Assembly: GCA_001776935.1 (NCBI GenBank)
Contig: MFDN01000005.1
Span: forward strand, 2,505 to 66,504
Direction: 5' to 3'
Source: Candidatus Daviesbacteria bacterium RIFCSPLOWO2_01_FULL_39_23
GTDB taxonomy: Bacteria > Patescibacteriota > Microgenomatia > Daviesbacterales > UBA10151
DNA: 64,000 nt
Position numbers and translations under genes: made by a program. Below, piece by piece: positions 559-53,928 of this stretch (position 1 is its first letter; each line of letters opens with the position of its first letter). Under the pieces are notes generated by a model. It did not search any database. It saw only the letters and a program-made list of their open reading frames with translations, and was not told the origin of the DNA.

Positions 559-1257
559 CTATTTACCAAAATTACGCCTTTGCTCCTGATACCAGGCAAC
601 TGCTTTTTTAAGTTCACCCGCATCAAAATCCGGCCAAAGCGTTGTAGTGAAATAGAATTCCGAATAGGCTGTTTGCCAAAGCAGAAAATTGGAAAGCCTT
701 GACCTGCCTCCTGTCCGAATTACCAATTCAGGGTCATTTTGACCATTAGTATATAAATGTCTTTCCACAATAGTTTCATTAATTTTTTTCACCTCAATAC
801 CCTCTTTAACAATATCTTTGATCGCTTCAATCAGTTCCTTTTTCCCTCCATAATTTAAAGCAATATTTAATTTGATTGACTCATTTTTAATATATGTTTT
901 TCTGATTTGATCAATCAGTTTGGTGATAGTAGCCGGGAGTCCGTGCATTTCCCCTAAAATAGTGATCCTGACTCCTTTTTGCATCATTTTCTTAAGTCTT
1001 TTATGATAGCCCCTTCTAATCAAGCTGAACAGACTTAAAACTTCTCTTTTTGCCCGCTCTTTGATATTTTCAGTAGAAAGCGCATAAACCGTAACAGTTT
1101 CCACCCCTAATTTCTCAGCCGCTTCCACCACCTTTTCTAAGGTCTCTGAGCCTTTTTCGTGCCCTTTTATATCAGGCAAACCCTTCCCTCTTGCCCATCT
1201 CCTGTTTCCATCCATAATTATGGCGATATGTTGGGGGATATTTTGTTTACTAATCAT
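559..1257 (-). CDS. uppS: Isoprenyl transferase / undecaprenyl-diphosphate synthase
   Basis: 232 aa. HIAIIMDGNRRWA N-terminal motif. cis-prenyltransferase family throughout. Confidence 0.88.
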   Translation of the reverse strand: MISKQNIPQHIAIIMDGNRRWARGKGLPDIKGHEKGSETLEKVVEAAEKLGVETVTVYALSTENIKERAKREVLSLFSLIRRGYHKRLKKMMQKGVRITILGEMHGLPATITKLIDQIRKTYIKNESIKLNIALNYGGKKELIEAIKDIVKEGIEVKKINETIVERHLYTNGQNDPELVIRTGGRSRLSNFLLWQTAYSEFYFTTTLWPDFDAGELKKAVAWYQEQRRNFGK

Positions 1258-4742: not shown

Positions 4743-5894
4743 ATGAAGATTAAAGTTTTAGGTACCGGTTTAACAAAATTTGGAGAGCTTTGGGACAAAT
4801 CACTTTTTGATTTGGCACAGGAGGCAGCTTTGGAAGCTATTGGCGATTCGCATTTAGCTGTTAACCAAATTGAAGCTGTCTTTGTGGCTAATATGTTATC
4901 CGGGAAATTATCCGGACAAGATCACCTGGGAGCAGTCGTAGCTTCTAATTTAGGCTTATCCGGCGCCTCTTTTAGAATAGAAGCAGCCTGCGCTTCCGGG
5001 GGCCTGGCAGTACACTTGGCCATCCAATCACTTCTTTCAGGCACTTATAAAAAGGTCCTGGTTGTGGGAGTGGAAAAAATGACTGATTCCCCTGCTTCAG
5101 AGATTACTTCTGCTTTAATGGGCGCTGGCTCGCAGACAGAAAGGCTGGCCGGCTTAACTTTTCCCGGCCTGTATGCTTTGATGGCCAAAGCCCATATGCA
5201 AAAATACGGCACCACCAAAAATGAACTGGCTCAGGTGGCTGTTAAAAACCACTATCATGCTTCTTTAAACGATAAAGCCCAATTTCCCTATGAAGTTACA
5301 GAAGAAAAGGTCCTGGAAAGTTCCTGTATCTGCACCCCTTTTACCCTGTTTGATGCCTCCCCTGTTTCAGACGGCGCAGGAGCTTTGGTTTTATCAGCAG
5401 ATGATGAACCTGGGAGCCTGCCGGCCGGCAGGCAGGTTTTCATCAGCGGGTCAGCTGTTGCAACCGACACCATTGACCTTGCCAACAGAAAATCATTGAC
5501 AGAAATTACAGCAACTCAAACAGCTTCTCAGAAAGCCTTAAAACAGGCAGGAGTGGAAATAAAAGATATTAAAGTGGCAGAAGTTCACGATTGCTTTACC
5601 ATCGCGGAAATTTTGGCCATGGAAGATTTGGGTTTTTGCCAAAAAGGCGAAGGAGGCAGGTTTATTGCCAAAGGCACCACTAAACTGGGAGGGAAATTAC
5701 CCGTAAACACCTCAGGAGGCTTAAAAGCCTGCGGTCATCCGGTGGGAGCTACCGGTGTTAAACAAATTGTAGAAATAACTAATCAATTAAGGGGAAATTT
5801 GGGCAAAAGGCAGGTCAAAGGAGCCAATGTCGGCCTAACTCAAAATGTGGGCGGAACAGGCGCAACAGTAGTAGTACATGTACTACAAAATTAA
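4743..5894 (+). CDS. Acetyl-CoA C-acetyltransferase (archaeal-type thiolase)
   Basis: 383 aa. Thiolase fold with catalytic Cys in the EAACASGG region. Sits next to HMG-CoA synthase and DUF35, as in archaeal mevalonate clusters. Confidence 0.8.
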   Translation: MKIKVLGTGLTKFGELWDKSLFDLAQEAALEAIGDSHLAVNQIEAVFVANMLSGKLSGQDHLGAVVASNLGLSGASFRIEAACASGGLAVHLAIQSLLSGTYKKVLVVGVEKMTDSPASEITSALMGAGSQTERLAGLTFPGLYALMAKAHMQKYGTTKNELAQVAVKNHYHASLNDKAQFPYEVTEEKVLESSCICTPFTLFDASPVSDGAGALVLSADDEPGSLPAGRQVFISGSAVATDTIDLANRKSLTEITATQTASQKALKQAGVEIKDIKVAEVHDCFTIAEILAMEDLGFCQKGEGGRFIAKGTTKLGGKLPVNTSGGLKACGHPVGATGVKQIVEITNQLRGNLGKRQVKGANVGLTQNVGGTGATVVVHVLQN

Positions 5895-5998
5895 CAATTT
5901 ACAATGTACAATTTACAATTGAATTCACAATCTATATTTTTGTTTTCTGCTTTGTACATTCTACATTTTACATTGTACATTGAAGGCAACGCCGACCT

Positions 5999-6298
5999 AT
6001 GAACAGCCCGGTACAAATTTGGAGATCGCATAAAAACTTACATAACTACCTTGGGAAACAAGGCAGGCTTTTGGTGTGGACTAAAATATTCATTGCCCCC
6101 TCCGGTTTTGAGCATCAAACTCCCTATATTGTTGGAATTGTAGAATTTGCTGACAAAGAAAAATTGCCTTTGCAGATTGTAGATTGCGAAGAAGAATCGT
6201 TAAAACCAAATCAAAAAGTTAAAGTAGTTATTAGAAAAATAGGCAAAGTAAAATCAGAAGATGTGATTGAATACGGGCTCAAAGCAAAACCTTTATGA
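5999..6298 (+). CDS. DUF35 OB-fold scaffold protein of the thiolase/HMG-CoA synthase complex
   Basis: 99 aa, OB-fold-like. Its stop overlaps the mvk start by 4 nt. Its position matches the archaeal thiolase-HMGCS-DUF35 trio. Confidence 0.55.
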   Translation: MNSPVQIWRSHKNLHNYLGKQGRLLVWTKIFIAPSGFEHQTPYIVGIVEFADKEKLPLQIVDCEEESLKPNQKVKVVIRKIGKVKSEDVIEYGLKAKPL

Positions 6299-7308
6299 AG
6301 ACCTCCGGCAGGACAATTACAGTTTCTGCCCCGGGAAAAATACACCTGCTTGGCGAACATTCTGTAGTATATGGGAAGCCTGCTTTGCTTACGGCTATAA
6401 ATCTCAGGACCAATGTCATCCTGACGGCAAAACCCGAAGGATCTCTCGCGAATGCAAGCTCCTCAGATGAACTGAGAGATTCTTCTCCGCCCACAGCTAC
6501 GCAGTTGCTGGCGGATCAGAATGACAAAATAAAGGCAATAATTGAACCTATCGTTAAAAAATATCTGAAAATAAAACAAATCCCGCCCTATAAATTGGAA
6601 ATTTCCTCAGAATTTCCTTTAGGAGCAGGGCTTGGCTCTTCTGCTGCCATATCTTCGGCATACATCGGCGCGCTCTTAACTTTTCTTAAAATTAAATGGG
6701 ACTTACACCTTATCAATAAACTTTCCTTTGAGGCTGAAAAAGCTTTTCATGGAAATCCTTCGGGCGCAGATAATGCCGCAGTAGTGTTTGGGGGCTTAAT
6801 CTGGTTTAGAAAAGAAACTACTGATTTAAAAATAATCCAACCGATTAACTCCCCTGTCCCTGCCAATATAGCTGGAAATTTTATACTGATTAACACCGGA
6901 AAACCAAAAGAAACTACCAAAGAAATGGTGGGATTAGTAAAATTAAGAGTCAAGAGTCAAGAGTCAAGAGTCAAGAAAATATTTGATCATCAGGAACAAT
7001 TAGTTAAAGAGCTTTTACTGACCATTCAATGCGGGAATGAAAAGGAATTAATCAAAATTATCAGGGCAGGAGAGAAAAACTTGGAAAAGATGGGTGTAGT
7101 TTCTTGGTATGTTCAATCTATTATCAGAAAAATAGAAAAAGCCGGAGGTGCTGCAAAAGTGTGCGGAGGAGGAGGAAAAACCAAAGCAACAGGTGTACTT
7201 TTGGCTTATCATCCGGAAAAATCAGTACTGGAAAAAATTGCAAAATCATATGATCTACCTTATTATACGGTTGTCTTGGGAGCCGAAGGCCTGCGAAAGG
7301 AAATATAA
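6295..7308 (+). CDS. mvk: Mevalonate kinase (GHMP kinase)
   Basis: N-terminal SAPGKIHLLGEHSVVYG and PLGAGLGSSAA GHMP motifs. Carries an in-frame MITE-like insertion (6414-6526) encoding ...SSPPTATQLLADQND..., and an (agagtca)x4 repeat. Confidence 0.8.
   Translation: MKTSGRTITVSAPGKIHLLGEHSVVYGKPALLTAINLRTNVILTAKPEGSLANASSSDELRDSSPPTATQLLADQNDKIKAIIEPIVKKYLKIKQIPPYKLEISSEFPLGAGLGSSAAISSAYIGALLTFLKIKWDLHLINKLSFEAEKAFHGNPSGADNAAVVFGGLIWFRKETTDLKIIQPINSPVPANIAGNFILINTGKPKETTKEMVGLVKLRVKSQESRVKKIFDHQEQLVKELLLTIQCGNEKELIKIIRAGEKNLEKMGVVSWYVQSIIRKIEKAGGAAKVCGGGGKTKATGVLLAYHPEKSVLEKIAKSYDLPYYTVVLGAEGLRKEI
6414..6526. mobile_element. MITE-like repeat (tgtcatYctga...tcaggatgaca family) inserted in-frame in mvk
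   Basis: Terminal motifs tgtcatcctgacg ... tcagaatgaca. Internal gccagcaactgcgtagctgtgggcggagaag is shared with the copies at 17271-17370 and 17685-17812. Confidence 0.7.
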
Positions 7309-7356: not shown

Positions 7357-8358
7357 ATGAAAAGAGAAATAACAATATCAGCCCCCGGAAAATTAATGTT
7401 ACTTGGTGAACATGCTGTTGTTTATAACAGGCCCTGTATTGTTACAGCAGTCGGACAAAGAATGAGAGCTACAGTTGAGCTAACAGAGAAATCAACTTTC
7501 CAGCTTAATGCCCCGGATGTACAAATTGCAAATTATCAAAAGCCAATGGATCAATTAGGAATTGGCGATCTTCCCAAAGGAGCTAAATTTGTAGAAATTG
7601 CAGTGGTGAATTTCTTAAGGTCACTCCTTGAGTACTCAAGGAGTGACCTTGTAAAACCGGGAGTCAAGGTTTCTACGACCTCAGAATTTTCTTCCCAATT
7701 CGGTTTTGGCTCTTCCTCCGCCTCTACTGTTTGCGTAATTAAAGCCTTATCAGAAATTACAGAAGCAAATCTTAATAACAAAGAGATCTTTGATCTCGCG
7801 TACAAGACAGTGCTTGATATACAGGGCAAAGGTTCGGGATTTGATGCAGCAGCAGCCACCTTTGGAGGCACACTTTATTTTGTAACCGGAGGAAAAACAA
7901 TTGAACCTTTAAACATTGACTCCCTTCCTTTAATAGTTGGTTACAGCGGCATTAAAGCAGATACTGTCACCTTAATAAATCAGGTAAAAGAAAAAGCCGG
8001 GGGAAACCCCCAAGCTGTAGAAGATATTTATGACAATATTGGCAAGCTGGTAGAACAAGCCAAACTCGCTCTTTTGGGTAAAGATTGGCAAAGCTTAGGT
8101 GAGCTTATGAATGAAAACCAAAAACTACTAACCAAACTTGGAGTAAGCATAAACAAGCTTGATGATATGATTGCTGCCGCCCTTAAAGCAGGGGCATATG
8201 GGGCAAAGCTGTCCGGCGCCGGCGGCGGAGACTGTATGATAGCTTTAGCGCCGGAGGATAAGGTGCAAGCCGTCAAAGATGGAATAACCTCTGTCGGCGG
8301 CCAGATAATTGAGGTAGAAACGAATGCAGAAGGAGCTAGAATAGAGACGAGGGACTAG
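7357..8358 (+). CDS. GHMP kinase, probable phosphomevalonate kinase
   Basis: ISAPGKLMLLGEHAVVY and GFGSSSA motifs. Lies between mvk and mvd. Contains a perfect 34-bp palindrome in-frame (7617-7650). Confidence 0.65.
   Translation: MKREITISAPGKLMLLGEHAVVYNRPCIVTAVGQRMRATVELTEKSTFQLNAPDVQIANYQKPMDQLGIGDLPKGAKFVEIAVVNFLRSLLEYSRSDLVKPGVKVSTTSEFSSQFGFGSSSASTVCVIKALSEITEANLNNKEIFDLAYKTVLDIQGKGSGFDAAAATFGGTLYFVTGGKTIEPLNIDSLPLIVGYSGIKADTVTLINQVKEKAGGNPQAVEDIYDNIGKLVEQAKLALLGKDWQSLGELMNENQKLLTKLGVSINKLDDMIAAALKAGAYGAKLSGAGGGDCMIALAPEDKVQAVKDGITSVGGQIIEVETNAEGARIETRD
7617..7650. repeat. Perfect 34-bp palindrome within a coding region
   Basis: aaggtcactccttgagtactcaaggagtgacctt equals its own reverse complement. 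Encodes LRSLLEYSRSDLV in-frame, and the same peptide appears in the antisense ORF. Confidence 0.9.
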
Positions 8359-8373
8359 AGTCAAGAGACAAGT

Positions 8374-8730
8374 ATGAGAAACAACAACGGCTACAGAAAT
8401 TTAATCGCTTGGCAAAAAAGTAATCTACTAGCCCATTTTATTTATGATTTAACTGCAAAATTCCCCAAGGATGAGCTTTTTGGAATGACTTCACAAATGC
8501 GTCGCGCAGCTCTATCAGTTTGTGCTAATATTGCAGAGGGTTATAGCCGAAGAGGCTTAAAGGATAGAAGACATTTCTATCAAATGGCAATGGGATCTTT
8601 AACGGAACTGGAATTTTTTATTGATTTTGCTTATGAAAGAAAATTTATTAGTCATGTTGATTATGAGAAAATATTAGAGATACATATGGAAACAGCTCGA
8701 GTTTTAAGCGGCTTGTTAAAATCCACTTGA
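8374..8730 (+). CDS. Four-helix-bundle protein (23S rRNA IVS protein family, Avd-like), second copy
   Basis: 118 aa with QMRRAALSVCANIAEGYSR. Paralog of 183..548. Flanked by gagtcaag-family inverted repeats. Inserted between the PMK-like kinase and mvd. Confidence 0.75.
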   Translation: MRNNNGYRNLIAWQKSNLLAHFIYDLTAKFPKDELFGMTSQMRRAALSVCANIAEGYSRRGLKDRRHFYQMAMGSLTELEFFIDFAYERKFISHVDYEKILEIHMETARVLSGLLKST

Positions 8731-14228: not shown

Positions 14229-14347
14229 GGATTAAATTAAAAATTAAAATTTAAAGATCAAAATGACATATTAAAATTAAAAATGTTTTCTAAATCTTTA
14301 CATTTTACATTGTCATTTTACATTTTAATTTTTGATATTTGATATTT

Positions 14348-15661
14348 CTAATCAAACAGCCCCAACTGCGGCACTCCTTCTGCTTCTTTAACCGACCCTT
14401 CTCCGTGGTTCCAGATCTTAACTACTCCATACACCCCGTCATACCCCGGATCAATCACCACCTCCCCTTTCCTTACTTTTTCCACCCCCTCTGCCACCCT
14501 GGAATCCGATACTTTTACAATTTCTGCTGTATCAACTTTGGTTAAAATCTTTATTTCCGATCCTAAAACACCAGTTAACTTTTTATATTCATTTAAGACT
14601 TTTTGGGTTGTTGGAGCAGTCCCAAAAGCTTCTGCAATCACTTGCAAAAGCGGCACTAACATTCTATATCCAGCTCTATTTGGAAAAGCTTGAGTTTTAA
14701 TTAACCCTTTGTCATTTGAAATTTGTAATTTGTCATTTCCTCGCGAAGCGAGACTTTCCACCCTTTCCATCACCCCAACAGTTAATCCCCTGCCGCAAAC
14801 AGGGCACTTGGTACCTTTTGCTTTAGTATCTTTTGGTGAGTATTTTACATTGCAATTTCTGTGCCCTGTATAATGGTATTTGCCTTCCTCAGGATGAAAT
14901 TCTATAGTACCGGCAATCTTTTGCTCTTTAATGGCTTCAAATAACCCCAAATACCCTGTTTGCACTTCTCCTCCAATTACTGTTGCTTCTCTGCCTAAAT
15001 TCGGCAAAGAATGTGCATCAGAACAGGATATTATTGACCTTTGATCCAACTCAGAAATTCTCCAGTTCATGGCCGGATCAGAAGAAAGCCCGGTTTCTAC
15101 GCCGTATATATATTCTGTTAAATCCTCAAAGCAGTCCTCCAGGCTGTCATATCCTGACTGGGAACCAAACACCCCAAACCAGGGAGTCCAAATGTGAGCC
15201 GGAATAAAAATAGCTTTTTGGTCTGTCTCAAGACACATCCTTAAAAGCTCTTTGGAAGGGATACCTACAATCGGACGTCCGTCAGAGGATAAATTGGCGT
15301 GTTTAGCAAGCAAAGCTTTTTGCAATTTTTCTGCTGACTCAAATGAGGGCAAAATTATGACATTATGAATCCGGCACCCTGCGCCTTTATGGGAATAAAT
15401 AGAAGCCACTTCCACTGTTAGGACAAACCTGACTTCATTTCCAGCCAGAGGCTGGTCGTCCTTTGGACGAAAGAATCCTGAGCCGTCTTCTTTTAACTGG
15501 CTTTTTAATTCTGCAAGCCAAAGAGGATGCAGAAAATCTCCTGTCCCCAAAACATCAATCCCCTTAAGTTTTGCCCACATGGCTAAATTAGGAACATTTA
15601 ATTGGGGTGAGCAAGCCCGGGAGAATCTGGAGTGAATATGCAAATCTGCAATATACGCCAT
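14348..15661 (-). CDS. PHP-domain nuclease, endonuclease Q-like (TIGR00375 family)
   Basis: N-terminal IADLHIHSRFSRA PHP motif. CPVCGR zinc-finger-like motif. The 437 aa length matches EndoQ. Small in-frame heptamer insertion (NDKLQISNDKG). Confidence 0.55.
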   Translation of the reverse strand: MAYIADLHIHSRFSRACSPQLNVPNLAMWAKLKGIDVLGTGDFLHPLWLAELKSQLKEDGSGFFRPKDDQPLAGNEVRFVLTVEVASIYSHKGAGCRIHNVIILPSFESAEKLQKALLAKHANLSSDGRPIVGIPSKELLRMCLETDQKAIFIPAHIWTPWFGVFGSQSGYDSLEDCFEDLTEYIYGVETGLSSDPAMNWRISELDQRSIISCSDAHSLPNLGREATVIGGEVQTGYLGLFEAIKEQKIAGTIEFHPEEGKYHYTGHRNCNVKYSPKDTKAKGTKCPVCGRGLTVGVMERVESLASRGNDKLQISNDKGLIKTQAFPNRAGYRMLVPLLQVIAEAFGTAPTTQKVLNEYKKLTGVLGSEIKILTKVDTAEIVKVSDSRVAEGVEKVRKGEVVIDPGYDGVYGVVKIWNHGEGSVKEAEGVPQLGLFD

Positions 15662-15834: not shown

Positions 15835-17673
15835 CTACTTCTTGTATTGCTGCTTATACATCTCTATTAACTCTTTCACAGTTGTTGCATCCTCAGCTTT
15901 TTTGTCCGCTTCCCTAAATTGAACAAGTCTTGGAAATCTCAAAGCATAGCCGGGTTCTGTCTCTGTTTTTCCTGCAGTATGCACCGGCGAACGGGTTATT
16001 TCATCAGCCAATACCTCTATAACAAGTCTTGGCTCCACCCAAACACTGGGAATGATTAAAGAATTCACCCTGGCCGGCTTACTTTTTACTTTTAACTTTT
16101 GACTTTTTACTTCAATACCCCTCCACTCCTCATCAGAGAGTCCTGTGCCGATTTTAGAAACTGTCACAAATTCGTCTTTTTTATCATCATAAACTCCCAC
16201 CAAAAGCGACCCTGCCCCAAATCCCGATCTTTTGCCTTTACCAAAAATATATCCCAAAATTACACAATCTATAGTATCTTTTAATTCCCCTGAAGAATGC
16301 CTTTTTAGTTTAACCCAGTTAAAATTCCTGGCTCCTGCTTCATATTTTGAGTCAGGTCTTTTAACCACCAATCCCTCAAGCCCCAAAGATATTGCCTCAT
16401 CCAAAAGATCCTGCAATCTTTGCGCTTCACTCACCATCTCCCCTTCTTCCACTACTAAAGTGTCTCCATCTGCCACTACAGCTTTTAGCTCTTTTAATCT
16501 TTCAGTAAGCGGTAAATCAATTAAAGATATCCCATCTTTATATAAGATATCAAAACAAAAAGCCCTCAGAGGAATCTTTTTTGTCATTTCTGCGATTCCA
16601 TACTTTCTGCGTCTTTGTGTAGTCTCCTGAAAAGGCAAAAACTCATCCGAAGCAGGGTTATAGCCTATGGCTTCACAATCCAAGATGGCTGATTTTGCTT
16701 TAATTTGTTTTATTGCCCCTTCGGCAATTTCCGGAAACATCGGGGTAGTTTCTTCCAGGTTTCTCGAAAACAATCTTACTGTCTGATGACTGACAGCTGA
16801 CGACTGACGTCTATCTATGTGTATTTGTACCCTAAAACCATCCAATTTTCTTTGGGCATTTACTTCTCCCAGCTTTTCAATTACTGTCTTGCCGGAAGGT
16901 AATCTTTCAGCAAGCTGCGACCGAATCGGCCTGCCTACTTGTATTTCCAGCTTTTCTACAGCTTCCAATCCGCCCTGCCATAAAGTTTCTCCAATTAAGC
17001 CTAAATCAGATACCCTGTTATAGCCTCCCTCTAAAAGTTTACGCTTTGACCTGTCCCCCAGCTTTAATTTGGCAAAAGCATCCAAAATAGTCGGGTCTCC
17101 GATCCCTAAACGGGAAACTCCCAAAGGAATCCTGACTAAATGCTTTGCAGACACCGCATCCATTTGTTTTAATAGTCCTACCAAAAGTTGTTGTTTTTTC
17201 TCTACAGTTCCCTCCCCTGTTGTTTTGGCAATCTGAGTTAGAATATGAAACACCTGACTTACGTTTAATTTGTCATTCCGATCCGCCAGCAACTGCGTAG
17301 CTGTGGGCGGAGAAGAATCTCTAGATTTACTTTTTGAATCTTGAGATCCTTCGCTACGCTCAGGATGACACTTTATATCACTAAGTTGCTGGACTACTAA
17401 TCCCAAATCCCCTACTTTTCCATATTCTTTTAAAACTTCTTCCCTCCCGATGCCGTAGGCTTTGGCAATACTTGCAGCCACTGTTTTTTCTGCCATCCCC
17501 ATTTCCAAAGGTTCATAAAACGGAGCAACTCTGCCTTGAATTAAATAGGAAACTTTGCCAATTTCTTCTGTTTTAATTTCTCTAAACAACTCGGTTAAAA
17601 TATCAATCAATAAAAGCCTTGAGGAAGTTGCTTCTAGTTTTTCAAAATATTCTGCTAGTTTAGAAAATAACAT
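15835..17673 (-). CDS. ATP-dependent DNA ligase (archaeal/eukaryotic type)
   Basis: MLFSKLAEYFEKLEATSSR N-terminus, KLDGFR adenylation motif, and EGLVVK and OB-domain motifs. The track start at 17739 is a GTG inside a MITE, so the ATG at 17673 is preferred. Two in-frame repeat insertions. Confidence 0.85.
   Translation of the reverse strand: MLFSKLAEYFEKLEATSSRLLLIDILTELFREIKTEEIGKVSYLIQGRVAPFYEPLEMGMAEKTVAASIAKAYGIGREEVLKEYGKVGDLGLVVQQLSDIKCHPERSEGSQDSKSKSRDSSPPTATQLLADRNDKLNVSQVFHILTQIAKTTGEGTVEKKQQLLVGLLKQMDAVSAKHLVRIPLGVSRLGIGDPTILDAFAKLKLGDRSKRKLLEGGYNRVSDLGLIGETLWQGGLEAVEKLEIQVGRPIRSQLAERLPSGKTVIEKLGEVNAQRKLDGFRVQIHIDRRQSSAVSHQTVRLFSRNLEETTPMFPEIAEGAIKQIKAKSAILDCEAIGYNPASDEFLPFQETTQRRRKYGIAEMTKKIPLRAFCFDILYKDGISLIDLPLTERLKELKAVVADGDTLVVEEGEMVSEAQRLQDLLDEAISLGLEGLVVKRPDSKYEAGARNFNWVKLKRHSSGELKDTIDCVILGYIFGKGKRSGFGAGSLLVGVYDDKKDEFVTVSKIGTGLSDEEWRGIEVKSQKLKVKSKPARVNSLIIPSVWVEPRLVIEVLADEITRSPVHTAGKTETEPGYALRFPRLVQFREADKKAEDATTVKELIEMYKQQYKK
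17271..17370. mobile_element. MITE-like repeat inserted in-frame in the DNA ligase gene
   Basis: tgtcattccgatccgccagcaactgcgtagctgtgggcggagaagaatctctagat...gagatccttcgctacgctcaggatgaca. Encodes ...SRDSSPPTATQLLADRNDK... Confidence 0.75.
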
Positions 17674-17684
17674 AAAAACCTCTC

Positions 17685-17812
17685 TGTCATTCTGATCCGC
17701 CAGCAACTGCGTAGCTGTGGGCGGAGAAGAACCTCCCACGAATGTGGGTATTAGGTATCCAGAATAAATCTGGAGATCCTTCGTCCCGATTAAATCAGGA
17801 CTCAGGATGACA
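17685..17812. mobile_element. MITE-like repeat immediately upstream of the ligase start codon
   Basis: Same family (tgtcattctgatccgccagcaactgcgtagctgtgggcggagaaga ... ctcaggatgaca). Its end lies 11 nt from the ATG, next to a GAGAGG Shine-Dalgarno-like sequence. Confidence 0.7.
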
Positions 17813-19970: not shown

Positions 19971-20077
19971 TTTGTTAGCGTTTAGCGTATAGATAATAGC
20001 GTATAGTTGAATTTTAACTACACGCTATACGCTACCCACTATACCCTATTATTACCCATTTCCCGCAAAAAATCTAA

Positions 20078-20581
20078 TCATGTTGTAATGTCGCAGGTCA
20101 AGCGATTAATTTCCATCACGATCACCCACTTCTCTATTCCCAAATCTTTGATGTAGCTTTCTAATTTATCAAAGACACTTCTTTTACTAATCCAGACACT
20201 CTTTTGTAAATGTTTAAAACCCCATTTCTTAAGATTCCTTCTAAAAAGATTTCTTATTATTCTTTTTTCTTCCGGAATATCAAATATCACTACTCTCCAC
20301 TTCCCGTCCCATTTCTTTTCTTCAGATTGATTATCAACAAGGTCTTTTCCTGCTTCTGTTAACTTAATTAAAACATCATTTTTAAGCTTAATTTGTTCAA
20401 TTAACCCGCCTTCTCTTAATCTTTTTAATGCTTGAGACAGAGAAGATTTTTTTAAATCCGGAATACCGTGGTGATAGCGGTAATGGTGATAGGCAAAATC
20501 TTCCAAGCGGATATAACCATCTATTGTTTTTTCTAGAGCAAACAAAATTGCATTTGTTAAACTCTTTTTATAAACCCTCAT
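20078..20581 (-). CDS. PaaX-like transcriptional regulator (small, wHTH + WDGKW domain), paralog 1
   Basis: WDGKWRVVIFDIPEEKRIIRNLFRRNLKKWGFKHLQKSVWISK resembles the WDGKW region of E. coli PaaX. The N-terminus is wHTH-like. Highly similar to 34375..34893. Confidence 0.55.
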   Translation of the reverse strand: MRVYKKSLTNAILFALEKTIDGYIRLEDFAYHHYRYHHGIPDLKKSSLSQALKRLREGGLIEQIKLKNDVLIKLTEAGKDLVDNQSEEKKWDGKWRVVIFDIPEEKRIIRNLFRRNLKKWGFKHLQKSVWISKRSVFDKLESYIKDLGIEKWVIVMEINRLTCDITT

Positions 20582-24394: not shown

Positions 24395-24477
24395 TGTCAT
24401 TCTGAGCGTAGCGAAGAATCTCTTGACTTGTTCAAGGTTCCAAACTAGATCCTTCGGCTAATCGCCTCAGGATGACA
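24395..24477. mobile_element. MITE-like repeat filling the carA-carB intergenic region
   Basis: tgtcattctgagcgtagcgaagaatctc...gatccttcggctaatcgcctcaggatgaca. Abuts the carA stop codon and ends 11 nt from the carB start. Confidence 0.75.
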
Positions 24478-26520: not shown

Positions 26521-26669
26521 TGTCATTCTGGCCTGTCCAGAATCCTTTCTGTCATTTTGTTGTCATTCTGATCCCGATGTATATCGGGAGAAGAATCTCT
26601 AGATTAATTCTAGATACATCTTAAACAAGTTAAGAGATCCTTCTGGTCCAATGGACCATCAGGATGACA
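26521..26669. mobile_element. Composite or nested MITE-like repeats directly upstream of the pyrB start codon
   Basis: tgtcattctggcc..., ctgtcattttg..., tgtcattctgatcccgatgt...agaagaatctctagat...gagatccttctggtccaatggaccatcaggatgaca. Begins 1 nt from the pyrB ATG. Confidence 0.7.
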
Positions 26670-27808: not shown

Positions 27809-28153
27809 TTAAGTATACTCTTTTAACATTTCTTTAATTTGCTTCCTAAGAAACGGTAAATCTTCCTGTATGGTTTTCCATAGTATTTCCAAATCAACTC
27901 CAAAATACTCATGAAGCACTTTATTTCTCATACTAATCATCCTGCTCCAGGGAATATCCGGATATTCCTCTACAAGTTCTTCCGGCATATTCCGGGCTGC
28001 TTCACCCAAAATTTCCAAATTTCTCACCACCGCATCTATTGTTTTCCAGTCATCATTAAGATCATCAAAAGACAAATTTCTAGTATAATCTTCAATCCTT
28101 AAAAGCGAGGTTAGAATATCCTGAAGATACAAAAGCGGCTTTCTTTTAGACAT
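27809..28153 (-). CDS. hepT: HepT-like toxin (DUF86, HEPN fold)
   Basis: 114 aa. RNKVLHEY equals the Rx4HxY HEPN motif. Overlaps mntA by 8 nt. Confidence 0.75.
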   Translation of the reverse strand: MSKRKPLLYLQDILTSLLRIEDYTRNLSFDDLNDDWKTIDAVVRNLEILGEAARNMPEELVEEYPDIPWSRMISMRNKVLHEYFGVDLEILWKTIQEDLPFLRKQIKEMLKEYT

Positions 28154-32376: not shown

Positions 32377-33321
32377 TCACTTTTGACAATGGAGACAAAA
32401 GTATGTGCCGCGGCCTGCTAAGGCAATTTTTTTAATTTCTGTTTTGCACATTTTGCAAGGATGTTTGTCCCGCCAATACACATAGGCGTAATCTAAAAAA
32501 TAGCCTTTGTGGCCTTCCGGATCTACAAAATGCGCCCGGGTGGACCCGCCGCGTTTTATCCCCTCTTTTAAAGCTTTAATAATGCCCTCAAAAAGTGATT
32601 TAAACTGTTTATCAGTTAAATCCCCGACTTTTGTTCGCGGATCAATTTTAGCATTAAAACAAGCTTCATTTGAATAAATATTCCCTATTCCGGAAACAGC
32701 ACTTTGATCCATAATCGCCACCTTAACCGGCATAGATTTATGCCTTAATAAATTCTGTTTCAAAACCTCCCAGGTAAATCCTTTTTCCAACGGCTCAGGT
32801 CCTAAATTTTTCAGAGAATTGTCAATTGCCAATTGTCCATTGTCAATTACCTTCACCCATCCAAAACGACGCTGGTCATTAAAATAAAGATGGGAGTTAT
32901 TCGAAAACGTAAATATAACTCTAGTGTGAGGATTCGGCATAGTTCCCAGCATATCTTCTGTGGGGTGCCCACCTATAAAACGCTTTTCGCTACTGGCTAT
33001 TCGCTTTTCGCTTGGAATATAAATAAGTTGGCCGGACATTTTTAGATGGAATAGAAGAGTTATTTGCTGTTCGCTATTGGCTGTTAGCTTTTTGCTTTTG
33101 GCTATTAGCGAACGGCGAATAGCTAATAGCTTTTCCCCTACGAGGTCTATACCGAGCAGTTTAGCTCTTCTCCATATTTTGAGTACATTTTTACCCTGGG
33201 CTAAATTAGGGTTCCCGATAAAGGATTTAGGAGAAAGAATTTGGATTTTTTGGATTTTCAACCCGATGATTTTTTTGGTCAACCCCAAACGGATAACTTC
33301 CACTTCCGGTAATTCAGGCAT
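32377..33321 (-). CDS. mutM: Formamidopyrimidine-DNA glycosylase (Fpg/Nei family)
   Basis: MPELPEVE N-terminus, H2TH region, and C-terminal C4 zinc finger (CKMCKTEIKK...CLHCQK). Several in-frame heptamer-repeat insertions (PSEKRIASSEKRF etc.) lengthen it to 314 aa. Confidence 0.8.
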   Translation of the reverse strand: MPELPEVEVIRLGLTKKIIGLKIQKIQILSPKSFIGNPNLAQGKNVLKIWRRAKLLGIDLVGEKLLAIRRSLIAKSKKLTANSEQQITLLFHLKMSGQLIYIPSEKRIASSEKRFIGGHPTEDMLGTMPNPHTRVIFTFSNNSHLYFNDQRRFGWVKVIDNGQLAIDNSLKNLGPEPLEKGFTWEVLKQNLLRHKSMPVKVAIMDQSAVSGIGNIYSNEACFNAKIDPRTKVGDLTDKQFKSLFEGIIKALKEGIKRGGSTRAHFVDPEGHKGYFLDYAYVYWRDKHPCKMCKTEIKKIALAGRGTYFCLHCQK

Positions 33322-37126: not shown

Positions 37127-37242
37127 TAGTCCATTGGACCAGAAGGATCTCTCAACCCGCCGAAGGCGAGGCTCGCCTCTGGCGGCTTATTTGAGATACT
37201 ACTGACATTCGTCAGAGATTCTTCGCTACGCTCAGAATGACA
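37127..37242. mobile_element. MITE-like repeat (intergenic, between ABC ATPase and aldolase)
   Basis: tcatcctgatag...ggaccagaaggatctctc...ccgccgaaggcgaggctcgcctctggcgg...cttcgctacgctcagaatgaca. Internal GC-rich hairpin. Confidence 0.7.
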
Positions 37243-50799: not shown

Positions 50800-53700
50800 T
50801 TAACTTCTCTTTTTCCCTACAATGCTTTCGAATTCATCCCCTTCCAAAGTCTCTTTCTCAAGTAATGCTTTGGCAACTTTGTCAAGCTTTACTTTATTTT
50901 TCTTTAAAAGATCTTGCGCTTCTTTATAACAGGCATCCATTATCTTTTTTATTTCCGCATCCACCGCATCATGCAGCTTTGGCGACAGACCTTCTCCTTC
51001 TTCCATCCCCCGCCAAACTCCAAACATGGGGCGGGGATTTATACTTAAAGGCCCAAGCGAAGACATGCCGTATTGGGTCACCATCGCCCTGGCAATATTG
51101 GTGGCAACTTCAATATCAGAAGCTGCGCCTGTTGAAATATCACGGAAGACCAATTCTTCCGCTGCTTGTCCGCCCAAAGCCGCAGTTATTTGTTCTAAAA
51201 GACGGGACTTGCTTTCATTTGACCTGTCTTCTGTCGGAGGAAATAAAGTATGCCCCCCGGACATACCTCTTGAGACAATTGAAATTCTGTGTACCGGATC
51301 TACCTTTTTCAGGAAATGTCCCACAATTGCATGACCTGCTTCATGATAAGCCGCCAGCTTCCTGTCATGTTCTGATTGCATTCTTTTCCTTTGCGGCCCT
51401 AATTTTTCTTTGGTGGCTGCTTCCTCCAAATCCTTGCTGTCTATGGCAGTTTTACCCTCTCTGGCAGCCAGAATGGCTGCTTCATTTAACATATTTGCCA
51501 AATCCGCTCCGGAAAACCCAACCGTACGCCGGGCCAGCTTTTCGATTGACACATCTTTGACAAAAGGCTTGCCTTTCATATGAAGTTCAATGATGGCTTT
51601 TCTTTCTTCCAAATCAGGAAGGGACAAAACCACCCGTCTGTCAAAACGTCCCGGCCGAACCAGGGCCGCATCCAAAAGATCAGGCCTGTTAGTCGCTGCC
51701 AGCACGATGACATGATCAGTCTGTGTAAAACCATCCATCTCCACTAAAATTTGATTTAAGGTTTGCTCTCTTTCATCATGACCTCCGGAAATTCCCATTC
51801 CCCGTTGCCTGCCGATTGATTCAATCTCATCTACAAAAATTATGGCCGGGGCTGCTTTTTTTGCCTGGGCAAACATATCCCGCACTCTTGCTGCACCCAC
51901 ACCCACCAGCATTTCCATAAATTCCGAACCGGCTATAGAGAAAAACGGCACTCCTGCTTCTCCTGCCACTGCGCGGGAAAGTAAAGTATTGTGATTAATA
52001 AAACCATTTCCCAAAAAACTATGTGTTTCAGGCACAGTGAAATCATATACATTAGCCTGACCCTCGGTTTTCTTAACTACTCTGGAGAAAAAAAGATTAG
52101 CTTCCAATAAGCTACGCAAATATTCCAAATGCGGAATTTCCACTTCAAGCAAACCGACATACTTCAAATACTCTTTTAGAGTTTCTCTGGTAACCCTACC
52201 TCTTCTTTTTACCTTATCAATAGTTTTTGATAATTTCTCATTACTTAATTTTTTTAAAGAAATAACCTTCCAAGATTCTACTACTATGCTGGCTATCAGA
52301 GGAATCACATCAATGTTTGTATTGACTCTGCCCATTCGTTTTGTATGAGCTTTAAGCAATCTTTGTTTTCTACTAAGACGGAAACCAACTATGTTGCTAA
52401 AGTTAACTAAAGATGAACCAGTCATAGTCAATCTATATACTGGACGATAATATCCATTTTCGGTTGTTCCTTTTACATTAAGACTTGCCACAACCCCTAA
52501 ATTTAAAAGCATCATTTGTACTTGTGTTACGATCTTTTTGCTAACTGTAGTATATTCGAACTCTGCCCGAGCCTTACCAACAGAAGCATCCGTATCAAAA
52601 AGTCCCTGCAGAAACGCTATTTGCACATTTCCCGGAGCTTGTAGAATAGTTGGGGGAATTGTTTTGTCGTATGATAATAAATACGACATACCCAATTGGT
52701 ACAATTGCTTCTTAAAATCCCAATTCGAGACAAGGAAAGACTGACCGTTAGCGCTGGTAGATATCATTCCTTTTGGATAATGAGTTGCAAGATACTTCTT
52801 ATAAAAGTCAATAGTTTCCGGCTCAACATTGGTAAGCCCCACTCTGGAAGCGTGGCTTAAATTACCATCACCCGTGAGAAGACCCATGAGGTATGCTGTT
52901 TCCTCATCTACTAAATCTAGGTCGCCAAAGATTCTTCTTCCGAACTGAATTGCTACATAATCCCCTTCTTGTAAGTGCTCAATCTTGCGGAAACGCAATT
53001 TACCAGTACTATCCATTACTACTACCGGATGTTCCGGTGTTCCTTCCAGAGAAAATCCCTGTGCCAGGCTAACCTTAATAGTTTTCTGCTCTCCTAAATT
53101 GAACCAATGGGAAGCAAAATTCTTGTTGGAAATTACGTCATCTGTACTAAACCCCGGCAACTGTGCCCCATAGACCTGATGAGATTTTGGATCAACATAG
53201 TAGTAACGCGGCACCTCCCGGATTTCCATTAATCCTTTATTAGTCCAAATGATAGTATCCCCGGTCACGCATTTCCCTGTTCCGGCAGGGCCAACCATCA
53301 GCACCCCTTTGGGAATCCTTGCCCCCAATGCCTTAAATTTTTCAGGGGTTTTGAGAAATTCCACAACTTCGGAAAGCTCTCTTTTTGCCTCTTCTGCCCC
53401 TGCCACATCTGTAAATTTGATTTGCGGCTGATCCTTGGTAAAAAGCCTTGCCCGGGATTGAGCAAAAGAAAATATTCCCTGCCCTGCGTCTCTGGCATTC
53501 TTAAACAGAAAAAACATTAGTCCAACCAGAAGCAGTATAGGCAAAACTGCTGACAGGATACCCACCCAAGCCTGCTGTATAGACAAATCTCTCACTTCAA
53601 TAGTAACTGTTTTAGGGTCTACGCCGGATGATTCCAGTATTTTATAGATGGACTCTCCTGCTTCTTTATGAGAAGTGAGCTTTTGGTCGGAATTTTTGAT

Positions 53701-53928
53701 CTCGGCAGTAACTTTATCGCCTTCCAAAGAAATTTTTTGGATTTTTCCATCTTTTACGTCATTTACAATTTGTGAAATAGGCACATCATTTGCAGAAGTC
53801 TGAGGTCCGCCGGAAACCTGATAGAAAAAAATCAACGCTGCTAAAGCAATTAGAATATAGACAAGTAAACCCTTAAACAAACCAAAGAATTTTTTATTTA
53901 TATTAACTTTTCTTTTACCATTTGCCAT
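50800..53928 (-). CDS. ftsH: ATP-dependent zinc metalloprotease FtsH, interrupted by an intein
   Basis: TM region and Walker A split as GPAGTGK | intein | TLLSRAVAGEAGVPFF. Walker B IIFVDEIE, SRH region and HEAGHA zinc motif are present. The extein totals about 614 aa. Confidence 0.9.
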   Translation of the reverse strand: MANGKRKVNINKKFFGLFKGLLVYILIALAALIFFYQVSGGPQTSANDVPISQIVNDVKDGKIQKISLEGDKVTAEIKNSDQKLTSHKEAGESIYKILESSGVDPKTVTIEVRDLSIQQAWVGILSAVLPILLLVGLMFFLFKNARDAGQGIFSFAQSRARLFTKDQPQIKFTDVAGAEEAKRELSEVVEFLKTPEKFKALGARIPKGVLMVGPAGTGKCVTGDTIIWTNKGLMEIREVPRYYYVDPKSHQVYGAQLPGFSTDDVISNKNFASHWFNLGEQKTIKVSLAQGFSLEGTPEHPVVVMDSTGKLRFRKIEHLQEGDYVAIQFGRRIFGDLDLVDEETAYLMGLLTGDGNLSHASRVGLTNVEPETIDFYKKYLATHYPKGMISTSANGQSFLVSNWDFKKQLYQLGMSYLLSYDKTIPPTILQAPGNVQIAFLQGLFDTDASVGKARAEFEYTTVSKKIVTQVQMMLLNLGVVASLNVKGTTENGYYRPVYRLTMTGSSLVNFSNIVGFRLSRKQRLLKAHTKRMGRVNTNIDVIPLIASIVVESWKVISLKKLSNEKLSKTIDKVKRRGRVTRETLKEYLKYVGLLEVEIPHLEYLRSLLEANLFFSRVVKKTEGQANVYDFTVPETHSFLGNGFINHNTLLSRAVAGEAGVPFFSIAGSEFMEMLVGVGAARVRDMFAQAKKAAPAIIFVDEIESIGRQRGMGISGGHDEREQTLNQILVEMDGFTQTDHVIVLAATNRPDLLDAALVRPGRFDRRVVLSLPDLEERKAIIELHMKGKPFVKDVSIEKLARRTVGFSGADLANMLNEAAILAAREGKTAIDSKDLEEAATKEKLGPQRKRMQSEHDRKLAAYHEAGHAIVGHFLKKVDPVHRISIVSRGMSGGHTLFPPTEDRSNESKSRLLEQITAALGGQAAEELVFRDISTGAASDIEVATNIARAMVTQYGMSSLGPLSINPRPMFGVWRGMEEGEGLSPKLHDAVDAEIKKIMDACYKEAQDLLKKNKVKLDKVAKALLEKETLEGDEFESIVGKKRS
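51988..53271 (-). mobile_element. Intein with LAGLIDADG homing endonuclease (in ftsH P-loop)
   Basis: 428 aa. N-terminal Cys (CVTGDTIIW), C-terminal ...GFINHN followed by a +1 Thr. Two LAGLIDADG-like motifs (YLMGLLTGDGN and AFLQGLFDTDASV). Confidence 0.8.

Follow-up and report, generated by a model that had tools for sequence, protein, structure and literature searches.

The mevalonate kinase (MVK) gene of Candidatus Daviesbacteria bacterium RIFCSPLOWO2_01_FULL_39_23 contains a perfect 34-bp palindrome that is translated as part of the protein. It is probably a non-autonomous hairpin element of the REP/MITE-like kind which was inserted in frame, similar to the Rickettsia palindromic elements (RPEs), much smaller, and found in a member of the Candidate Phyla Radiation (CPR). 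The gene lies in a stretch of 64,000 nucleotides (the window), whose relevant features are listed in Table 1. An inserted element had already been suggested in an earlier note on this DNA, on a par with a recombinase or nuclease site and an RNA hairpin. The extra length of the loop compared with orthologs and the identical DNA at unrelated intergenic loci bear this out, and presence or absence among orthologs as well as deletion derivatives provide further backing.

The core is fully self-complementary between 7617 and 7650, where the bases next to it (T 7616 and G 7651) are unpaired, and it is located in the coding region of the second GHMP kinase as described before. Its length, which the earlier note considered unusual for coding DNA, is indeed exceptional. 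It is the longest perfect palindrome of the 64-kb window, followed by one of 20 bp, and in second-order Markov simulations of the window (n=200) the longest palindrome reached up to 26 bp, in 1/200 runs. Base-composition arithmetic gives an expected count of ~7e-6 palindromes of this length per 64 kb. A chance palindrome was ruled out by the simulation together with the dispersed identical copies. The predicted folds are stable for RNA (-28.7 kcal/mol, z = -5.1) as well as for DNA (-16.7 kcal/mol, z = -5.7). In Rfam 15 the palindrome had no match at the gathering threshold and only chance-level scores well below it; the sole Rfam match across the whole window was a tRNA. Both strands encode RSLLEYSRSD (R88-SLLEYSRS-D97 in the plus-strand frame), as had been noticed, yet this is an automatic outcome of the symmetry, since a perfect palindrome of even length gives the same peptide on both strands and no independent evidence is added. 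A spurious antisense ORF is uninterrupted there, as the palindrome gives the same reading on both strands.

Table 1. Features of the palindromic repeat, its host gene and the second element family in the window, and copies of the core at other loci.
Feature	Position	Strand	Remarks
Perfect 34-bp palindromic core AAGGTCACTCCTTGAGTACTCAAGGAGTGACCTT	7617..7650	.	17-nt arms; hairpin of a 15-bp stem and a GUAC loop
Full repeat unit, ~46 nt (TTTCTT + core + GTAAAA)	7611..7656	+	orientation 'A'
MVK (GHMP kinase), host gene, 333 aa	7357..8358	+	PF00288 GHMP_kinases_N and PF08544 GHMP_kinases_C
Loop F86-G102 (FLRSLLEYSRSDLVKPG)	7612..7662	+	invariant N85 before; strand toward GFGSSSA motif after
Spurious antisense ORF, 106 aa	7551..7871	-	wholly within MVK ORF; same peptide read there
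Second-family copy	6415-6525		in frame, first GHMP kinase
Second-family copy	17272-17369		in frame, ATP-dependent DNA ligase
Second-family copy	17686-17811		ligase 5' end
Second-family copy	24396-24476		intergenic
Second-family copy	26522-26668		intergenic
Second-family copy	37142-37241		intergenic
Copy of the core, L007 (labelled Daviesbacteria)	8 nt past uppS stop codon		between convergent genes
Copy of the core, L010	~23 nt past gene end		beside tRNA gene
Copy of the core, L011	~8 nt past gene end		
Copy of the core, L012/L016	between Nudix-like gene and next gene's ATG		9 nt before start codon in L016
Copy of the core, L014	6 nt past stop codon		gene for aminoacyl-tRNA synthetase-like protein
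Copy of the core, L015	12 nt past rplL		

The MVK protein matches the mevalonate kinase of Candidatus Daviesbacteria bacterium RIFCSPHIGHO2_01_FULL_40_24 at 100% identity, and the identical protein is encoded on 23 contigs, which stem from assemblies of different samples in NCBI, JGI and ENA. Its gene is the second of two adjoining GHMP kinase genes (the first at 6295..7308) and belongs to a mevalonate-pathway cluster with HMG-CoA reductase, an HMG-CoA synthase-like protein, thiolase, an OB-fold protein, mevalonate diphosphate decarboxylase and a Nudix isomerase-like protein. The phosphate-binding motif GFGSSSAS is invariant in the homolog alignment (A1), as expected for a mevalonate kinase of the GHMP type. 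The host ORF is intact despite the in-frame palindrome and is conserved across several assemblies. We compared the loop in 35 aligned homologs (A1) and catalogued the loops of 120 homologs. The segment from N85 to G102 is the sole hypervariable indel site of MVK in these data. The commonest loop state comprises 11 residues (e.g. FSEKYPIQGGV) and the loop of the window comprises 18 (+7 aa), so that relative to the baseline loop of the orthologs the palindrome segment is an insertion. In the AlphaFold model of MVK (mean pLDDT 86.6 overall) the insert extends the end of helix 74-91 and continues as a low-confidence loop (mean pLDDT 58 for residues 91-100) before the strand 102-109. Judged by this model, the insert is predicted to sit in an exposed and tolerant surface loop outside the conserved enzyme core.

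The same peptide is found in three further MVK lineages (P0002, P0003, P0007). As proposed in the earlier note, orthologs were compared, and this revealed an insertion in the loop with a DNA-identical core in diverged MVK genes. L002/L003 and L004 have the core at 34/34 identity and L001 has it at 33/34, with a change of the loop centre from TA to CA. Outside the loop these orthologs share 73-83% amino-acid identity, third codon positions are identical at a fraction of 0.44-0.52 and synonymous-type sites at 0.38-0.49. By these values, synonymous sites are saturated between the orthologs, and neutral vertical descent cannot explain ~11 third positions that are identical across several lineages. 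What is conserved at the palindrome is the DNA and not the protein. A protein segment conserved in orthologs without palindromic DNA, which according to the earlier note would have spoken for chance, was not seen: the core is identical at 34/34 positions while third positions are ~45% identical. That the core is identical between species with no more than ~75% amino-acid identity could alternatively reflect strong functional constraint. The neighbour-joining tree of the 120 homologs is star-like with all loop types scattered over it, and therefore one ancient insertion and repeated insertions are not separable.

Further copies, for which a search had likewise been proposed, were found at unrelated loci of other genomes and metagenomes, and the window itself has a single copy. 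A scan with the inner 24 nt of the core (CACTCCTTGAGNNCTCAAGGAGTG) returned 4 loci in 185,579 species genomes and 7 loci in the metagenome collection, with 11 exact-core loci over both collections; three of the scanned loci are MVK orthologs (among them L009 and L013). The core is identical in L002, L003, L004, L007, L011, L012, L014, L015 and L016, has one central change in L001, L009 and L013, and shows one compensatory change on both arms in L010 (AAGGCC...GGCCTT). Over all genomes examined the 34-bp stem-loop occupies at least seven distinct loci. At least six unrelated intergenic sites carry copies, in Daviesbacteria or groundwater contigs and 6-24 nt past stop codons, and the majority of the intergenic copies come from metagenome contigs without a taxon label. 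Both labelled Daviesbacteria species genomes that matched have one exact-core copy each, and in the metagenome collection four contigs of one related-sample group carry the core. The uppS gene of the window (562-1257, minus strand) lacks a downstream copy. Since uppS is followed by a copy in L007 (Table 1), this locus is polymorphic between genomes.

A covariance-model search of the 64-kb window with filters off recovered the MVK copy and no diverged ones; among the fetched loci its hits were confined to the copies already known, the remnant in L005 and the core of a Rhizonema cyanobacterium. Two contigs of the latter have only the inner 24-26 nt in common with the element and differ in the flanks. 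These matches are possibly convergent, as a palindrome holds half the independent information of its length. No copy of the core was detected in viral contigs, phage records or plasmid records. A profile search for the peptide RSLLEYSRSDL (A3, padded to 42 columns with random flanks) gave 33 word-sharing candidates, none with E <= 10. The peptide is rare among called proteins, about which the padded profile says little more.

The conserved unit extends beyond the core. In 10 non-redundant copies the consensus is TTTCTT-AAGGTCACTCCTTGAGTACTCAAGGAGTGACCTT-GTAAAA, and conservation of the flanks covers 6 nt on either side and ends there. The outer TTT and AAA are able to pair, and CTT and GTA form a conserved non-complementary 3x3 bubble. 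The folded unit thus consists of a 15-17-bp perfect stem, the 3x3 bubble and three A-U pairs. As the bubble is asymmetric, every copy has an orientation. Each copy scores 9-15 bits better in one orientation with the covariance model, although the model is based on these very copies. With 14/15 core pairs invariant across the long copies, covariation is uninformative on their structure. Relative to the upstream gene both orientations were found. The MVK copies of the window, L004 and L001 share their orientation. The MVK copy of L002/L003 agrees with the inverted consensus at 10/12 positions and with the forward consensus at 4/12, and lies at exactly the same codon position as the unit of L004. 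This would require an inversion of the unit on the spot or else two hits at one and the same nucleotide; a simple recombination event by which the bubble could be flipped is not known to us. Six-frame translations of the unit showed that a single reading frame is open in both orientations, and this is the frame used in MVK.

Shortened forms of the element occur at the same site. L022 (P0047) has the flanks of the L004 type (..AGT TTC TTA | CTT GTA AAA..) minus exactly 30 nt, and its MVK gene is intact. Neither a target-site duplication nor microhomology was found at the L004/L022 junction. L005 reads TTTCTC-AAGGTC-T-GACCTT-GTAAAA, which corresponds to the long form minus the central 21 nt. An alternative MAFFT alignment (A4), which places the mini-hairpins on the right arm, was left out of pair counting because its register needs two substitutions, whereas the 21-nt central deletion needs none. 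In-frame mini-palindromes of the form AAGGNN-N-NNCCTT are present in L005, L017, L018 and L024, and the widespread 'THAR..LAKL' loops are mini-hairpins of the form GCAAGG-NN-N-NN-CCTTGC. Their inner pairs are TC/GA in L017, CC/GG in L018 and TT/AA in L024, and a degraded AG/CG is seen in L023. These double changes keep the arms complementary, and the encoded residues vary (SD, PG, LN). On comparison of these loops, the double changes indicate either that the hairpin is under selection or that it acts as a template for mutation; they hint that the hairpin itself may be maintained. All MVK remnants are in frame because the gene is essential.

The MVK loop of other orthologs contains at least four further palindromic insert types. 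The loops of L019, L020 and L021 harbour long elements of the GTCATCC...GGAATGAC type, which encode HPERSEGS... or ...RFRGND and have predicted folds of -32 to -52 kcal/mol; an EVKKMRLHL type and several others were also found. This variety, as far as the aligned loops can tell, suggests that the MVK loop is a recurrent landing site for palindromic elements. The element in the MVK loop of L021 is a DNA homolog of the in-frame insert in the first GHMP kinase of the window. This insert belongs to a second family, GTCATCCTGA...CAGAATGACA, of which the window has six or more copies, including two in frame (Table 1). With at least two families in three genes (MVK, the first GHMP kinase and DNA ligase), the data suggest that the window genome tolerates in-frame palindromic inserts. 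In addition, the Fpg gene of the window contains two complementary low-complexity arms in frame, FtsH contains an intein, and unrelated hairpins stand past other gene ends.

The following course of events is consistent with these observations. A ~46-nt palindromic repeat of Candidatus Daviesbacteria, whose usual home is a short spacer just past a stop codon, probably entered the MVK gene with one copy at its hypervariable, surface-exposed loop. There it would be tolerated since it is read in the sole frame open in both orientations (..RSLLEYSRSDL..), and also since the loop grows by 7 aa over the baseline, outside the conserved core. An enzyme encoded elsewhere in the genome, e.g. an HUH/Y1-type transposase, could copy or mobilise the unit in the form of single-stranded hairpin DNA; replication template switching might serve as an alternative for the copying. 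HUH/Y1 transposases of the IS200/IS605 and RAYT kind act on folded single strands. In our case, a trans-acting enzyme which may recognise a folded single strand is suggested by the perfect core, the asymmetric bubble, the low copy number and the absence of duplicated target sequence. A Pfam scan of the 62 window ORFs revealed no transposase, including RAYT (Y1/HUH), and no other candidate mobilising enzyme. Recognition by the enzyme, recent spread or hairpin-templated correction might keep the symmetry and the identity across species, and the protein segment in MVK would be a neutral passenger. Points against a mobile element are the lack of such an enzyme among the window ORFs, the missing target-site duplication at the L004/L022 junction and the low copy number, as classical REPs or MITEs have high copy numbers.

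The main rival is a selected cis-acting hairpin, either an RNA element for 3'-end formation, stability or processing, an attenuator of the mevalonate operon or a protein-binding palindrome, for which the peptide would be the price paid. We consider it unlikely. The very stable fold, the core sequence invariant between species and the mini-hairpins in MVK which stay complementary via double changes while the amino acids vary would all fit such a function, and so would the unrelated hairpins past other gene ends. The intergenic copies all lie 6-24 nt past a stop codon, but in the short spacers of CPR genomes any insert is necessarily near one. The majority of MVK orthologs have no hairpin at this site (the FSEKYPIQGGV baseline), and in L022 the gene is intact after the loss of 30 nt of the core. 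Moreover, the element is found in either orientation relative to the upstream gene, a 3' U-tract is absent on both strands, where the 3' flank is A-rich, and there is no Rfam match. A cis-acting hairpin is also compatible with a mobile origin, so that the two do not really exclude each other. A site for a recombinase or nuclease (Xer/dif-like, integrase att or homing-type), with the arms binding a dimer around the central GTAC, is quite improbable. It would account for a perfect 34-bp palindrome with strict sequence conservation instead of structural covariation, for the few copies per genome and for the inverted copy at one fixed position, and by eye an open frame adjoining the L015 copy may resemble an excisionase-type helix-turn-helix protein. 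However, the GC skew of the window goes with gene strand and shows no switch at 7.6 kb, which gives no terminus or dif signature, and several loci with the element, on four contigs, occur in one related metagenome sample group. Besides, the window encodes no recombinase, and the phage, plasmid and viral collections were without a match.

Template switching is a known maker of perfect palindromes. A fold-back or template switch inside the gene, or a coding palindrome that arose by chance, is nevertheless very improbable here: the identical 34 bp with their flanks are present at six or more unrelated loci in several species, and the chance expectation is ~1e-5 per window. The right arm alone encodes SRSDL, which is also present in short-loop orthologs and would agree with a local origin, but L005 is explained by the 21-nt central deletion with zero substitutions in the palindrome and the alternative alignment needs two. 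The identical copies dispersed over other loci contradict a local origin by template switching. An artefact of assembly or amplification such as a chimeric inverted junction is hardly credible, given the same protein on 23 contigs of independent assemblies and the same DNA in independent orthologs; the independent assemblies contradict it directly.

Beyond the preferred reading of a mobile hairpin repeat, a more far-reaching one is conceivable, which we regard as rather doubtful. The MVK hairpin might be an anciently maintained, dual-use DNA/RNA structure in which compensatory changes have preserved the stem in many lineages of Microgenomates. A putative dedicated hairpin-binding enzyme might recognise the intact 46-nt form and either copy, flip and homogenise the unit between gene-end sites and the coding site or use it to tune expression of the mevalonate operon. 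After Rickettsia, Daviesbacteria would be another, independent lineage with several families of protein-coding palindromes that remodel essential enzymes, in this case MVK, the adjacent GHMP kinase and DNA ligase. Three features go beyond the current explanation: the identity across species, the in-place inversion and the covarying mini-hairpins.

In-frame palindromic repeats are known chiefly from Rickettsia, and the present case would extend them to the Daviesbacteria of the CPR. It suggests that small, streamlined CPR genomes also let hairpin repeats colonise the loops of essential enzymes, which bears on the origin of new loops in protein evolution. For annotation, such repeats may be the source of spurious antisense ORFs, of odd peptides with low complexity and of proteins called too long in CPR bacteria. 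With regard to mobile DNA, the 46-nt unit with its perfect core, asymmetric bubble and in-place inversion implies a hairpin-specific mechanism in these organisms.

Strong symmetric hairpins a few nucleotides past stop codons are typical of terminator-like dispersed repeats, such as SPRITE of S. pneumoniae, and bidirectional intrinsic terminators. The Daviesbacteria element resembles them as a symmetric hairpin just past stop codons, sometimes between convergent genes as in L007. However, no T-run follows the stem on either strand, the 3' flanks being GTAAAA and AAGAAA; one copy stands ahead of a start codon (L016) and another within an ORF. Quasipalindrome template-switch mutagenesis could explain the complementary arms and the compensatory changes in L010, L018 and L024. 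Identical copies at unrelated loci are left unexplained by it, which makes it a mechanism of maintenance and not of origin.

REP and REPIN elements carry a GTAG or CGTC tetranucleotide as a tag at one end (PMC3733652), usually occur in more than 100 copies per genome (PMC2817692) and are mobilised by RAYT transposases (PMC3733652, PMC2817692, PMC3116915). Similar to these, the Daviesbacteria element is a 20-40-bp stem-loop past genes, is conserved within a lineage and has an asymmetric feature on the stem side that possibly guides a hairpin-recognising enzyme. It differs in the missing GTAG/CGTC tag, as the flanks are TTTCTT and GTAAAA in the 10 non-redundant copies, and in its perfect stem, since the stems of REPs are imperfect. 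Furthermore, there are one to few copies compared with hundreds (1 copy in 64 kb and only 11 exact-core loci overall), and one Daviesbacteria copy is intragenic. MITEs fused in frame with host ORFs have been described for Coxiella QMITE, ERIC, BOX and Correia elements (PMC5896051, PMC10969869), and SPRITE is named in PMC10969869. In common with MITEs, the Daviesbacteria unit is a non-autonomous repeat able to join coding sequence. It is far smaller, lacks a spacer bounded by separate terminal inverted repeats, and the filled L004 site compared with the shorter L022 site shows no target-site duplication.

In behaviour the element resembles the RPEs reported by Ogata et al. (2000, 2002), which PMC10969869 describes as imperfect palindromes of ~100-150 bp restricted to Rickettsia; a 2002 paper cited there calls the in-frame repeats 'a unique but recurrent feature'. 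A limited literature search returned no description of in-frame palindromic elements in CPR bacteria. Like RPEs, the palindromic repeats of Daviesbacteria are both intergenic and in frame in unrelated housekeeping genes, encode a fold-compatible peptide and form several families per genome; the MVK copy in particular is an in-frame insertion in a surface loop with an intact host ORF. Unlike RPEs, the MVK unit of ~46 nt has about a third of their length, a perfect 34-bp core, a low copy number and no sequence relationship to the Rickettsia families, and it resides in a different phylum, within the CPR. The second family of the window (~100-150 nt) is nearer to RPEs in size. The element thus belongs to the known class of dispersed palindromic repeats that are able to become protein-coding.

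The tendency of the mevalonate kinase (MVK) loop to hold palindromic DNA is also seen in orthologs of the gene. Mini-hairpins of the form GCAAGG-NN-N-NN-CCTTGC lie within the coding loop of five orthologous loci (L005, L017, L018, L023 and L024). Their inner base pairs are altered on both arms (TC/GA, CC/GG and TT/AA) and the residues encoded by these pairs vary alongside (SD, PG and LN). The mini-hairpin is kept in coding DNA without conservation of the protein.

A second palindromic repeat family was observed in the window, structured and, at about 100-150 nt, larger than the unit of about 46 nt found in MVK. It is bounded by the termini TGTCATCCTGA...TCAGAATGACA, has the conserved inner arms GAAGGATCTC/GAGATTCTTC and occurs at least six times within the 64 kb. 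Two copies are read in frame, one in the first GHMP kinase gene adjoining MVK (peptide AKPEGSLANASSSDELRDSSPPTATQLLADQNDK) and one in an ATP-dependent DNA ligase (peptide CHPERSEGSQDSKSKSRDSSPPTATQLLADRNDK). The family is also homologous, at the DNA level, to the sequence inserted into the MVK loop of the ortholog L021.

Peptides of the form (K/Q)SLRS(N/D)DL were noted at the N-termini of three MVK orthologs (P0005, P0011 and P0017) as well as at a second internal insertion site in the orthologs P0019 and P0037 (columns ~197-206 of the alignment of 35 homologs). This recurrence suggests another short repeat that has turned coding; the corresponding DNA in L021 is no obvious palindrome.

Further hairpins of the window are built from short units. 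The formamidopyrimidine-DNA glycosylase (Fpg) gene carries two complementary in-frame arms made of GCTAWTAGC-like units, which flank the conserved HLKMSG strand of the protein on both sides, and similar tandem-unit hairpins are found in two spacers. Two long A/T-rich quasi-palindromes composed of TTTACA/TGTAAA-like units are possibly terminator-like hairpins. Shorter perfect palindromes of 20 and 18 bp occur slightly above the number obtained by simulation (expected 0.115 for the 20-bp length and 0.375 for 18 bp).

Palindromic and other elements by position (window coordinates unless a locus is named)
Feature	Position	Location
Larger repeat family, copy	6415-6525	first GHMP kinase gene
Larger repeat family, copy	17272-17369	DNA ligase gene, N-terminal domain
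Larger repeat family, copy	17686-17811	
Larger repeat family, copy	24396-24476	
Larger repeat family, copy	26522-26668	
Larger repeat family, copy	37142-37241	
Larger repeat family, possible fragments	4686 and 53980	
Fpg arms	32989-33012 and 33107-33130	Fpg ORF 32377-33321, minus strand
Tandem-unit hairpin	1264-1310	spacer after polyprenyl synthase gene
Tandem-unit hairpin	19976-20048	spacer after PaaX/Cas2-like gene (20078-20581), just upstream of Fic-domain gene
A/T-rich quasi-palindrome	5889-5982	spacer after thiolase gene
A/T-rich quasi-palindrome	14234-14343	spacer after unassigned ORF 14348-15661 (minus strand)
20-bp perfect palindrome TTTTGGGATATATCCCAAAA	10187-10206	Nudix gene
18-bp perfect palindrome GCCTGCCGGCCGGCAGGC	5416-5433	thiolase gene
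18-bp perfect palindrome GGAATATCCGGATATTCC	27951-27968	HepT-like gene
FtsH gene with intein	50803-53928	minus strand
23S rRNA intervening sequence protein gene (PF05635)	8374-8730	
23S rRNA intervening sequence protein gene (PF05635)	183-548	
Rhizonema palindrome	L006 4726-4749	
Rhizonema palindrome	L008 1807-1830	

Insertions or possible insertions of other kinds are found in the same window. The intein in FtsH, which carries a LAGLIDADG homing-endonuclease domain, is a further in-frame selfish element. Of the two genes annotated as '23S rRNA intervening sequence protein', one (8374-8730) separates MVK from the diphosphomevalonate decarboxylase gene. Since five orthologous loci (L001, L004, L017, L018 and L021) have either nothing or a Nudix gene at this position, a recent insertion is suggested.

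Outside the Daviesbacteria, the inner 24-26 nt of the core, (G)CACTCCTTGAGTACTCAAGGAGTG(C), were found as an identical palindrome in the genome bin of a cyanobacterium, Rhizonema sp. NSF051, where it sits in a non-coding segment repeated on two contigs (L006 and L008). Its flanks are unrelated to those of the Daviesbacteria unit, and the match may represent convergence or an unrelated repeat.
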